Shown: positions 25,553-28,753 of the stretch, one piece after another
Position numbering within the stretch: position 1 is the first letter of the stretch
Layout of the letters: each line of letters begins with the position of its first letter
Assembly (NCBI GenBank): GCA_029062895.1
Contig: JAIDPF010000091.1
Span: 1,502 to 65,501, forward strand
Source: Lachnospiraceae bacterium
GTDB taxonomy: Bacteria > Bacillota > Clostridia > Lachnospirales > Lachnospiraceae
DNA length: 64,000 nucleotides
Direction of reading: 5' to 3'
Program-made: the position numbers and the translations under genes
The notes under the pieces: generated by a model
Told to the model about the DNA's origin: nothing
The model's input: the letters and a program-made list of their open reading frames with translations, nothing else
Databases searched by the model: none

Positions 25553-26122
25553 ATGGGATTTATAGAATTACTGTTGTTAGCAGTGGGATTGAGCATGGAC
25601 GCTTTTGCTGTTTCCATATGTAAGGGGTTATCTATGAAAAAGGCATCAGTGAAAGGTATGATGATCTGCGGCGGTTGGTTTGGTGGTTTTCAGGCATTGA
25701 TGCCTCTGATTGGTTTTTTGGCGGGCAGAATGTTTGCAGACGCAATTGCTGCTTATGACCATTGGGTAGCATTCGGTCTGTTATTCATTATTGGGGTGAA
25801 TATGCTTCGGGAGGCATTATCAAAGAAAGAGGGAGAGGCAGAGAGCGGAGATCTGTCTGTAAAGACGATGTTTGTCATGGCGGTAGCAACTTCGATTGAC
25901 GCTTTGGCAGTCGGCGTTTCCCTTGCGATGGCAGGTGATGTGAATATCTGGACGGCTGTCATACTGATCGGTTGTACGACATTTATCCTGTCTGCTGTCG
26001 GCGTAAAGGTGGGAAGCATCTTCGGCAATAAATTTGAAAAGAAGGCGCAAGCCGCAGGAGGCGTTATCCTGATGCTTCTGGGGATAAAGATATTATTGGA
26101 ACATTTGGGAATTCTGGGTTAA
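25553..26122 (+). CDS. mntP: Manganese efflux pump MntP family
   Basis: LSMDAFAVSI, FGGFQALMP, DHW, ATSIDALAVG. Confidence 0.9.
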   Translation: MGFIELLLLAVGLSMDAFAVSICKGLSMKKASVKGMMICGGWFGGFQALMPLIGFLAGRMFADAIAAYDHWVAFGLLFIIGVNMLREALSKKEGEAESGDLSVKTMFVMAVATSIDALAVGVSLAMAGDVNIWTAVILIGCTTFILSAVGVKVGSIFGNKFEKKAQAAGGVILMLLGIKILLEHLGILG

Positions 26123-26190
26123 TTTCTTTCACTGATCTGTGATTGCTTTCATATGATATATAAAATGCTTATTGCATTACACATTAATAT

Positions 26191-26303
26191 AAACTGATCA
26201 GGCTGTAAACGATATGTTTATGAAGCCGGGCTGCAAGCTGGCAGCAGCAGATGGAATGATTCACATCTGTGGGACAGCTGTGTGTTCCATAGGTGTGTTT
26301 TTT
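26191..26303 (+). ncRNA. NiCo (czcD) riboswitch with overlapping intrinsic terminator
   Basis: ACUGAUCAGGC...GCCGGGCUGC...GCAGCAGAUG...CAUCUGUGGGACAG four-way-junction pattern; terminator cacatctgtgggac/gttccataggtgtg plus T run; upstream of a CDF gene. Confidence 0.85.
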
Positions 26304-26376
26304 ATGCCTTATTGTATATGGCAGTGGTTACAGGAACAATTAGATACATATCATTTGCAATATGGAGGATTCTTTT

Positions 26377-27282
26377 ATGGCAAAAGAAATACCAACTACA
26401 TTGGACGAAAATGAATTGATCAGGCAGATCTCTTTAGTGACGATGATAGGCAATATTGTACTTTGCGCATTTAAATTGTTTGCCGGTATTGTTGGAAAAT
26501 CGGGAGCGATGTTATCTGATGCGATCCACTCTTTGTCAGATGTTGTGATCACCTTTGTTGCATTTTGGGGAGCTAAGATGTCCAGACGGGGAGCAGATAA
26601 AGAACATCCATATGGTCACGAAAGATTAGAATGTATTGCGTCCCTGATTTTGGGAGTTATACTTTTGGTGACGGGTTTGGGGATCGGAAAGGTTGGTCTG
26701 CAAATCATTTTTTCGGGAAATTATGAAAAGCTTATGATTCCGGGAGTGATTGCATTGGCTGCCGCGGTGATATCTATTGTAGTTAAAGAGGCGATGTATT
26801 GGTATACAATGCATTATGCAAAGATTCTCAACTCTGCAGCTTTTATGGCAGACGCATGGCATCATCGTTCGGATGTATTCGCATCCATCGGCTCGTTGAT
26901 TGGTATCGGCGGTGCAATGTTGGGATTTCCAGTATTAGATGCAGTTGCGGGCGTTGTTATTTGTCTTTTTATTTTACGGGTGGCGTTTGATATTTTATTG
27001 GATGCCGTAAAAAAGATGTTGGATACTTCCTGCGGTGAAGAATATGAAAAAAAGTTAAGTGAATATGTTTTAACTCAGAACGGCGTAGTGGGGATTGATA
27101 TGCTTCGTACCAGAATGTTTGGTAATAAGGTATATGTTGATCTGGAAATCAGCGTGGATGCGGATAAAACCTTCCGGGAAGCTCATACAATCGCAGAGAA
27201 GGTGCATTACAATGTTGAAAAGGATTTTCCAGACACAAAACACATTATGATACATGTAAATCCGACAGAACAGATTTCCTGA
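26377..27282 (+). CDS. Cation diffusion facilitator (CzcD/FieF-like)
   Basis: SDAIHSLSD, HPYGHER, ADAWHHRSD, C-terminal AH..AE..H and IHVNP; ATG 26377 after ggagg. Confidence 0.93.
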   Translation: MAKEIPTTLDENELIRQISLVTMIGNIVLCAFKLFAGIVGKSGAMLSDAIHSLSDVVITFVAFWGAKMSRRGADKEHPYGHERLECIASLILGVILLVTGLGIGKVGLQIIFSGNYEKLMIPGVIALAAAVISIVVKEAMYWYTMHYAKILNSAAFMADAWHHRSDVFASIGSLIGIGGAMLGFPVLDAVAGVVICLFILRVAFDILLDAVKKMLDTSCGEEYEKKLSEYVLTQNGVVGIDMLRTRMFGNKVYVDLEISVDADKTFREAHTIAEKVHYNVEKDFPDTKHIMIHVNPTEQIS

Positions 27283-27338
27283 GATCCATTATAAGGAAAT
27301 TACTTGTATATTAACGAAATTGGGGCTAATATTAAATT

Positions 27339-27473
27339 ATATCAATATGTTGGAGGCAAGGGAGTGTACACGGAGCCGCAGATGGTTGCATAATATCCCC
27401 AGACTTGCCGTTAGATGTTAGTGCTGAAGAAAAATATGCCAAACAGCGGGTCTGAATAAAAGCCGCTGTTTTT
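27339..27473 (+). ncRNA. Candidate small RNA, copy 1
   Basis: Promoter TTGTAT-17-TAATAT (27304-27332); stem ggcaag (27355-60)/cttgcc (27404-09); terminator aaacagcgg/ccgctgttt; homologous to copy 2. Confidence 0.65.
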
Positions 27474-27544
27474 ATAGGAAAAATTCCCGAAAATATTTTT
27501 AAAAAAGAATTGATAAAAGCGGTAAAACGGTGTATAATATAAAT

Positions 27545-27720
27545 GACAAAAATTAAGCATTGCCCGTAAGTAATCGGGATTGCTAAGCTATGAAGTGTCA
27601 CGCAGGAGTCAAGAGGTGTGCATGGAGCTTTGGTGGTTGCATAATAACCAGACTTGACGTAGGCAGAAATGCTGAAAGAAAATATGCATAAGCGGTTCTG
27701 TTTTCAGAGCCGCTTATTTT
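27545..27720 (+). ncRNA. Candidate small RNA, copy 2
   Basis: Promoter TTGATA-17-TATAAT (27510-27538); stem gtcaag (27608-13)/cttgac (27653-58); terminator ataagcggttctg/cagagccgcttat plus T run. Confidence 0.68.
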
Positions 27721-27738
27721 ATGTAAAGAGGTGCAAAA

Positions 27739-27963
27739 GTGGAGAATAATGACAAACTATACCAATGTGCAGATTCATATACAGGACTTTGCGATTATGA
27801 ATACTGAATATGTCTGTACAATAACGGGACAATTATCAATAGAACTATTGGATTTGATGATAGTGGCTTCATGCATTTAGCAGGGTTGGAGAAGCTTACT
27901 GATTTAACGGCATTTTCTGATACAAGCAAAGGAAAGAGGTTTAAAAATGACATTTTCCATTAA
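27739..27963 (+). pseudogene. Truncated PBECR4-like nuclease remnant with an in-frame stop
   Basis: RBS gaggtg + GTG 27739; reads MENNDKLYQCADSYTGLCDYEY*ICLYNNGTIINRTIGFDDSGFMHLAGLEKLTDL...; TGA at 27805-27807; the F..F.HLAGL.KL.D motif is recalled from PBECR4-type proteins. Confidence 0.55.
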
Positions 27964-28753
27964 TTTTCTTATCTTATTTGGAGTGGCTTTATTATGCTGC
28001 GTGGTGGGATTCTATAAGTATGTATATTTTATATCCATAGGATATGGTATCGCTATAGCAGGACAGGGGATTGCAATGCTGATATTGTTCCGTGGGGATC
28101 TGACGCTGCCCGTGATTGCGCTGTGTGTACTGCTGATTCTGTACGGATGCAGATTAAGTGGTTACCTGCTGTTCCGTGAGATCAAAAGCGTAAGCTATCA
28201 AAAGCATATGAAAACGGAGATCAAGGACGGTTCTGACATGAAGCTTGGAATTAAAGTGCTGCTGTGGATTTCCTGTGGACTGCTTTATGTGATGATGGTT
28301 TCCCCGGTATTTTATCGGATCGAGAATCAGGATGTCCATGGGGACGTGGCATTTTACATAGGGATAGTGCTTATGGCCTTTGGTTTGGTATTGGAGTCCG
28401 CTTCTGATATCAGTAAGAACAGACAGAAGAAGGTTAATCCGAAAAGATTCTGTGACAAGGGACTGTTCAGGATTGTGAGATGTCCTAACTATCTGGGAGA
28501 AATGGTTATTTGGACAGGGGTATTGGTTGTCGGTGTTTCGTCATTTTGTACGGTTGGGCAGTGGATCGTTGCGGTCGTTGGCTATCTGGGCATTATCTAT
28601 GTCATGTTCAGCGGTGCCAGAAGACTGGAGATCCGGCAGAATAAGAACTATGGCGACGACCCGGAGTATCAGGCATATGTGAAGAAGGTTCCGATTATGG
28701 TTCCGTTTGTTCCACTATACAGCGTAGAAAAATATAAGTTTTTAGTGCTTTGA
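27947..28753 (+). CDS. DUF1295 / steroid 5-alpha-reductase-like membrane protein
   Basis: YGCRLSGYLLFRE, GLFRIVRCPNYLGE, YQAYVKKVP. Confidence 0.88.
   Translation: MTFSINFLILFGVALLCCVVGFYKYVYFISIGYGIAIAGQGIAMLILFRGDLTLPVIALCVLLILYGCRLSGYLLFREIKSVSYQKHMKTEIKDGSDMKLGIKVLLWISCGLLYVMMVSPVFYRIENQDVHGDVAFYIGIVLMAFGLVLESASDISKNRQKKVNPKRFCDKGLFRIVRCPNYLGEMVIWTGVLVVGVSSFCTVGQWIVAVVGYLGIIYVMFSGARRLEIRQNKNYGDDPEYQAYVKKVPIMVPFVPLYSVEKYKFLVL

Follow-up and report, generated by a model that had tools for sequence, protein, structure and literature searches.

Type III toxin-antitoxin systems (ToxIN, CptIN, TenpIN) consist of a single promoter, an RNA, a terminator and an endoribonuclease gene, and their RNA antitoxins are pseudoknotted (PMC5086642). 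A phage-encoded mimic of such an antitoxin, pseudo-ToxI, lets the phage escape ToxIN abortive infection (Blower et al. 2012, PMC3475682). The RNA motif called drum was described alongside skipping-rope by Weinberg et al. (2017, Nucleic Acids Research, PMC5737381); there, drum is one of four highly conserved motifs with a 3' terminator, it belongs to a group with riboswitch-like properties whose members were yet judged improbable riboswitches, and a protein encoded close by is in "compelling association" with it, no function having been assigned. The literature that we searched contains no later functional work on drum and none that ties it to PBECR4 (Pfam PF18813) or to toxin-antitoxin biology. 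Here, we analyse 64,000 nucleotides (nt) of a Lachnospiraceae bacterium (assembly GCA_029062895.1, contig JAIDPF010000091.1, positions 1,502 to 65,501; hereafter the window), in which two related drum units lie at 27304-27720. The locus reads as a 583-bp fragment of a mobile cassette made of a drum RNA and a PBECR4 nuclease gene, now decaying, and we think it probable, with some reserve, that drum is a type III-like RNA antitoxin of the PBECR4 RNase, represented here by an orphan remnant.

The family to which the two units belong is already catalogued. When the window was scanned against Rfam 15, two matches rose above threshold, a NiCo riboswitch (26184-26279) and drum (27585-27690). An earlier reading made from the sequence alone had recognised two tandem RNA units and had matched them to no family; the scan overturns this, as copy 2, which is complete and on the forward strand like all features of the pair, passes the gathering threshold of RF02958 (50 bits against 43, model positions 1-112, E 2.2e-06 for the whole window). 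Copy 1 (27346-27442), which is truncated at its 5' end, falls below the cut-off with 24.1 bits, its P2 being forced into a zero-length loop; our own covariance model, R1, recovers it with 36 bits (E 5.7e-05) and gives copy 2 72.8 bits. The sequence-only reading had held that a match to a well-characterised family would undo its proposal, and the match goes half that way because drum is catalogued but not functionally characterised.

Both hallmarks given for drum in 2017 can be recognised at this locus. The 3' Rho-independent terminator is present here and in all the family members that we inspected, and the specific protein nearby is represented by a PBECR4 stub, keeping in mind that PBECR4 may differ from the protein meant in 2017. 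Copy 2 shares with the Rfam family the stems P1-P4, the GGAGC, GGUUG..AACC and GAAAGAAAA blocks, the 3' terminator and a protein gene nearby. The locus differs from it in that copy 1 is truncated below the cut-off, the copies stand in tandem, the protein gene is dead and the native transcript of copy 2 has a 5' hairpin outside the Rfam model. No convincing drum RNA turned up in 36 other sampled genomes of the same genus, nor in 24 other sampled genomes of the same order. Weak Rfam matches in such genomes (L003-L005, 23-30 bits; L numbers are our labels for loci) were taken as chance because our own model gave at most 22 bits or no match and they did not align.

The homology between the two units stands as first described. 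A global alignment of 27346-27478 with 27596-27722 has 93 identical positions out of 123 (75.6%, terminators included), and the blocks GGAG.CAAG, GGAGC, TGGTTGCATAATA, CCAGACTTG, TGCTGAA and AAAATATGC occur in both copies. Each unit closes with a hairpin and a T run, also as described. In copy 2 (27688-27722), this is a 13-bp stem (hairpin 27688-27717); in copy 1 (27441-27475), RNAfold pairs AAACAGCGG ... CCGCUGUUU ahead of the U run in a 9-bp stem with a 13-nt loop, and the terminator scan missed it because of the size of that loop. The reading frames do differ between the copies: two 33-codon open reading frames (ORFs), at 27320-27421 and 27590-27691, read the GGTTGCATAATA block differently. 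A small-protein reading of these ORFs was rejected because the frames of the conserved block differ and the variation is compensatory for RNA pairing.

The promoters set the two units apart. The proposal that each copy has its own holds for copy 2, which follows a sigma-70-type element (27510-27538; TTGATA, 17-nt spacer, TATAAT) with 11 of 12 consensus matches, but not for copy 1. The promoter-like element before the latter, read from the sequence at 27304-27332 (TTGTAT at 27304-27309, 17-nt spacer, TAATAT at 27327-27332), has 7 of 12 matches, is absent from the promoter scan and is host sequence. What had been taken for two independent genes is one such gene and a 5'-truncated paralogue, joined by an insertion to a promoter-like element of the host. 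The fold of copy 1 is no more stable than that of shuffled sequences (z = -0.12), and the tandem arrangement itself is unusual: elsewhere in the sampled Clostridia genomes, all 16 loci that we examined have a single unit.

The insertion can be read against an empty site in G022, a genome of the same genus. There, G022:C9 8511-8955 corresponds to window positions 26900-27345 (93%) and G022:C9 8955-9328 to 27928-28300 (90%), so that the left and right blocks abut, and the junction runs from the czcD stop codon through TTGTAT-17-TAAAAT and a ribosome-binding site (RBS) to the start of a DUF1295 gene. In the window, an extra 583 bp (27346-27928, +/- 2 nt) comprising copy 1, copy 2 and the PBECR4 stub lies between czcD and the DUF1295 gene. 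G022 has the same element in its empty site, directly before the DUF1295 RBS; the promoter-like stretch in front of copy 1 is therefore ancestral host sequence, and it was probably the original promoter of the DUF1295 gene. The homology between the two copies begins at the left insert junction, within the P2 region, which accounts for the low scores of copy 1 and for its lack of the 5' strands of P1 and P2. Copy 1 is best described as an older paralogue without its 5' third, which was lost at the insertion junction.

The decisive context lies directly 3' of copy 2 and had been overlooked. It is a PBECR4 pseudogene stub (27739-27927, forward strand) with a GTG start and an in-frame TGA at 27805-27807, which is cut off by the right border of the insert after about 62 codons and translates to VENNDKLYQCADSYTGLCDYEY*ICLYNNGTIINRTIGFDDSGFMHLAGLEKLTDLTAFSDTS. 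It matches positions 1-50 of the 188 of PF18813 (34 bits), i.e., the N-terminal quarter of the domain. A profile search of the genome, which is 98% complete, recovers the stub (33.1 bits, one TGA inside) and no other PBECR4 match; without an intact PBECR4 in the genome, both RNAs are orphans. Copy 2 is probably expressed and copy 1 probably inert.

Unrelated assemblies also contain the copy-2 unit, within other flanking sequences, and its drum core is identical in two independent metagenome-assembled genomes (MAGs), L006 and L007. In L007, the ORF behind the drum RNA is an intact, full-length homologue of the stub (more than 405 aa, with PBECR4 as its N-terminal domain), while the gene is reduced to its first 9 codons in L006 and nothing of it is left in L008. 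The L007 contig (CAYNYB010000011.1, Alistipes MAG label) also encodes, as neighbours, a ParB-N/radical-SAM-like protein of 711 aa and a BspA-type leucine-rich-repeat protein. This region looks like a mobile element, and its Bacteroidota label may mean mis-binning or transfer. Neither the copy-2 unit nor the L007 protein had a match in GenBank phages or PLSDB plasmids. For copy 1, no full-length relative was found, the contig pattern search having returned only copy-2-type sequences; the single metagenome match (L194) shows no similarity to the window and was put down to chance.

The structure of the RNA family is well supported by covariation. R1 was built from 16 diverse drum RNAs, and 51 matches were aligned, of which 44 are distinct. 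Over the full structure, pseudoknot included, 90.2% of the cells are paired in these 44 sequences, compared with 71.4% after shuffling of the columns and 27-46% after sliding of the 3' partners. Changes on both sides are seen at 27 of the 29 base pairs and in all five helices. The pseudoknot helix has double changes at 6 of 6 pairs, is paired in 93.9% of cells and occurs in at least 12 variants across the family. An alignment-free test agrees: a Watson-Crick helix of at least 6 bp between the loop and the joining region is found in 77% of cognate and 2% of non-cognate pairings. The earlier view of a structured non-coding RNA family is thus borne out.

Two elements of that view have to be exchanged. 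The compensatory double change seen between the copies is real, but the "closing stem" in which it was placed is the family-wide pseudoknot, in which the P2 loop pairs with the joining region that follows ACCnCAA; it is formed by GGCAAG (27355-27360) and CTTGCC (27404-27409) in copy 1 and by GTCAAG (27608-27613) and CTTGAC (27653-27658) in copy 2. Conversely, the GCATA/TATGC pairing exists in both copies, not as the pseudoknot that had been suggested but as P3, a nested stem of the Rfam consensus (27388-27392 with 27435-27439 in copy 1; 27639-27643 with 27683-27687 in copy 2). Minimum free energy folding makes the same inversion, nesting the pseudoknot strands as a plain stem, and its topology was rejected as the native fold because P2 covaries around the 5' strand of the pseudoknot. 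Copy 2 forms P1, P2, P3, P4 and the pseudoknot. In copy 1, P1 and P2 are each without their 5' strand and P4 is degenerate; P3 and both strands of the pseudoknot are retained.

The 5' hairpin of copy 2 (27556-27584 in the RNAfold centroid) precedes the first base of the Rfam model. A hairpin between the promoter and the first Rfam base of drum occurs in nearly all loci of the series L056-L103, about 25 nt upstream of the match, and mostly reads ACAGGCAAC(N4)GUGUCUGU. The native drum RNA thus extends some 30 nt beyond the 5' end of RF02958.

Drum RNAs were found in 16 of 400 sampled Clostridia genomes. Outside the window, the 16 drum loci comprise ten with a PBECR4 ORF on the same strand directly downstream (one of them truncated), one at a contig edge and five lone RNAs, i.e., about 5 of 15 informative bacterial loci are lone. 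Seen from the protein, the linkage is stricter: at 46 of 48 loci with relatives of the PBECR4 proteins of about 200 aa, the gene is preceded on its own strand by a drum RNA, which mostly ends some 55 nt before it, and the other two are uninformative (a contig edge and a C-terminal fragment), hence 46 of 46 informative loci, a count that covers proteins at least about 32% identical to alignment set A4, set A3 being too divergent. Of 399 Clostridia genomes, 13 carry drum together with PBECR4, 3 drum alone and 9 PBECR4 alone (Fisher p = 3e-16).

In the common layout of these loci, TTGACA-17-TATAAT is followed by the conserved 5' hairpin, then by drum with its strong terminator and, after about 25 nt, by an RBS and ATG. 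This leaves no room for a promoter between the terminator and the start codon, so the nuclease gene would be expressed only by read-through of the terminator. In the L081 locus, an apparently structured, GC-rich insert of about 300 nt (1200-1500) separates the drum terminator from the start codon of PBECR4. A comparison of neighbourhoods revealed no other protein family conserved beside the drum-PBECR4 pair, and there is thus no candidate for a protein antitoxin.

The dependence is one-sided: the PBECR4 gene never occurs without an RNA, and the RNA often occurs without the gene. Lone drum RNAs, or drum RNAs followed by decayed toxin genes, are seen in the window, in L006, L008, L035, L038, L031 and L040, and at the ends of two prophages (L026, L039), where the lone RNAs lie beside a GIY-YIG endonuclease and a CHAP lysin. 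In four of these loci (L035, L038, L008, L006), the drum RNA and its terminator are complete with no PBECR4 downstream, and some have kept the promoter. L035 (6209-6320) keeps promoter, drum, terminator and RBS, possibly with a few start codons of PBECR4. In L040 (6140-6448), the drum RNA is intact and the PBECR4 gene that follows it retains only 85 of 217 profile positions.

The PBECR4 genes that have no drum (L106, L109-L114, L120) are still preceded by a promoter, another structured RNA and a terminator, and several of these RNAs have two tandem repeats. One class (L106, L109, L111, L113, L114), about 250 nt upstream, starts with a 5' hairpin and UAAAAUCCGAAA and continues with two units of about 55-60 nt in tandem, each with GUUGGCrGACAACAGAAAAA at its end; L110 and L112, and likewise L120, have RNAs of two other classes. 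None of these RNAs has a match in Rfam 15 at E <= 0.01, and they are possibly uncatalogued RNA partners with type III-like repeats.

Phages extend the catalogue of lone copies. Drum RNAs occur on 35 viral contigs of IMG/VR. Only about five of the copies have PBECR4 downstream (one frameshifted), two more keep a small fragment of it and about 21 copies have none in spite of at least 600 nt of downstream sequence. Many of the lone viral copies are embedded in tRNA arrays, on the strand of the tRNAs (L147, L184, L176, L146, L183). On one 104-kb contig (L147, 10537-11897), three drum copies are interleaved with tRNA-Thr, Tyr, Phe and Gln. Because of this placement, one may speculate that there is a tie to tRNA-directed nuclease activity.

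These lone copies, in bacteria and in phage tRNA arrays, make it very probable that drum also acts in trans. The sequence-only reading had proposed a trans-acting RNA, possibly an antitoxin, and the antitoxin is what best fits the comparative data; what does not survive is the idea of a new family with two intact genes. In the mechanism that we propose, one promoter would yield an excess of terminated, stable, pseudoknotted drum RNA, and the predicted RNase would be made by occasional read-through of the terminator. The RNA would bind or decoy the RNase and hold it inactive as long as the supply of RNA lasts; if that supply failed, e.g., upon phage infection or loss of the element, the RNase would be freed. 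Lone drum copies in phage tRNA arrays would then be counter-measures, and copy 2, if made, could neutralise an incoming PBECR4 of the L007 type, given the identical drum core.

The parallels with type III systems are several. The bicistronic layout is that of the intact drum-PBECR4 relatives, the toxin gene of the window being a stub; the drum RNA is pseudoknotted, with all six pairs covarying; the cassette is on mobile DNA; and there are look-alikes of the RNA in phages, as for ToxIN (PMC3475682). Like pseudo-ToxI, drum is carried by phage genomes without the toxin gene. Unlike it, the phage copies are full drum RNAs and often stand in tRNA arrays. There are also differences from type III systems proper: the two copies of the window are only 75.6% identical and each has its own terminator, and the predicted nuclease belongs to PBECR4 (PF18813 only) and not to the ToxN, CptN or TenpN families.

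A number of observations weigh against the antitoxin reading. First, drum is a single RNA of 110-190 nt, one long structured unit, and not an array of short repeats (34-45 nt in type III systems) cut by the toxin. Second, the assignment of PBECR4 as a nuclease comes from the name of the Pfam family: its AlphaFold model is confident (mean predicted local distance difference test score, pLDDT, of 91.4), and Foldseek found no significant relative of it in the PDB (best E 0.03), searches in PADLOC, NCBIfam and PDB sequences gave no match, and PHROGs returned only an unnamed family. Third, the near-identity of copy 2 to L006 and L007 reflects recent transfer and not selection in this host. Fourth, the order promoter, leader, terminator and gene would fit an attenuator equally well. 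Fifth, the account of Weinberg et al. differs from the strict arrangement of RNA and gene found here.

The fourth of these points leads to the alternative that survives best, unlikely as we think it: drum could act in cis as a leader, be it a riboswitch or an attenuator bound by a protein, that gates read-through into PBECR4, and the copies in the window would be leftover leaders. Drum resembles such leaders in that it belongs to the 5' untranslated region of the gene, which lies on the same strand behind a terminator and has no promoter of its own; its strong conservation and its pseudoknot are typical of ligand-binding RNAs, and the same 2017 description notes riboswitch-like properties (PMC5737381). 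However, it also places drum in a group judged improbable as riboswitches. The terminator, which starts a single base after P3, folds independently in every member and has no bases in common with the drum fold, and no alternative antiterminator pairing is apparent. Complete drum RNAs persist where PBECR4 is gone (L035, L038, L008, L006), and those between phage tRNA genes have nothing there to regulate. The attenuator is disfavoured because terminator and fold do not overlap and free-standing copies exist.

We give a lower probability still to a reading in which PBECR4 requires drum as its RNA subunit, guide or substrate, such that the RNA activates or targets the nuclease. The tight one-to-one linkage and the lack of any other partner would be expected of a ribonucleoprotein of this kind, and the conserved fold is more elaborate than simple occlusion needs. 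The variable sequence of the pseudoknot could in principle be a specificity element, but its strands are internal and paired with each other and are thus not free to guide. If the RNA merely armed the nuclease, its lone presence in phages and in bacteria without PBECR4 would be hard to explain, and a mobile RNase gene without an immunity factor would be unusual. Finally, that the window holds two independent, intact, trans-acting small RNA genes of a new family, with their own promoters and host targets, is very improbable: two promoter-like elements, two terminators and a real RNA fold speak for it, but the family is already in Rfam, copy 1 starts at the insertion junction without the 5' strands of P1 and P2 and behind host sequence, and the unit, which neither the closest relative nor 35 further genomes of the genus contain, is therefore not a host-integrated regulator.

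The insertion has changed the surroundings of the host genes. It places two intrinsic terminators between the DUF1295 gene (27947-28753) and its ancestral promoter, and the expression of this gene may now rely on read-through from the strong drum promoter. On the other side lies a metal-efflux cluster (25553-27282), made of an MntP-family manganese exporter gene (25553-26122), the NiCo riboswitch (75 bits) and a CDF/CzcD-type efflux gene (26362-27282); the nickel/cobalt riboswitch presumably controls the latter.

Our study adds to the drum family a natural experiment and not a new family: the nuclease gene has decayed, and a complete, promoter-driven RNA gene stays. The same RNA is found intact, with or without a linked gene, in unrelated genomes. 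The strict order of RNA before gene, the lack of a protein partner and the lone copies in phages make the hypothesis of an RNA antidote specific enough for experiment. Beyond this locus, we suggest tentatively, and as something that could well prove wrong, that drum and PBECR4 constitute a new and widespread class of type III-like toxin-antitoxin or abortive-infection modules, in which a long pseudoknotted RNA, possibly a tRNA-like mimic of the substrate, would restrain a BECR-type RNase; the copies in phage tRNA arrays would be decoys, bacterial orphans such as those of the window would outlast the toxin and guard against cassettes that re-invade (anti-addiction), and other PBECR4 subfamilies would use different, uncatalogued RNAs, some of them with tandem repeats. 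If the antidote hypothesis is true, the range of type III systems would come to include a new toxin fold and a new, non-repetitive kind of antitoxin, a widespread orphan RNA would gain a function, and there would be an explanation for one class of the non-tRNA inserts of phage tRNA arrays.

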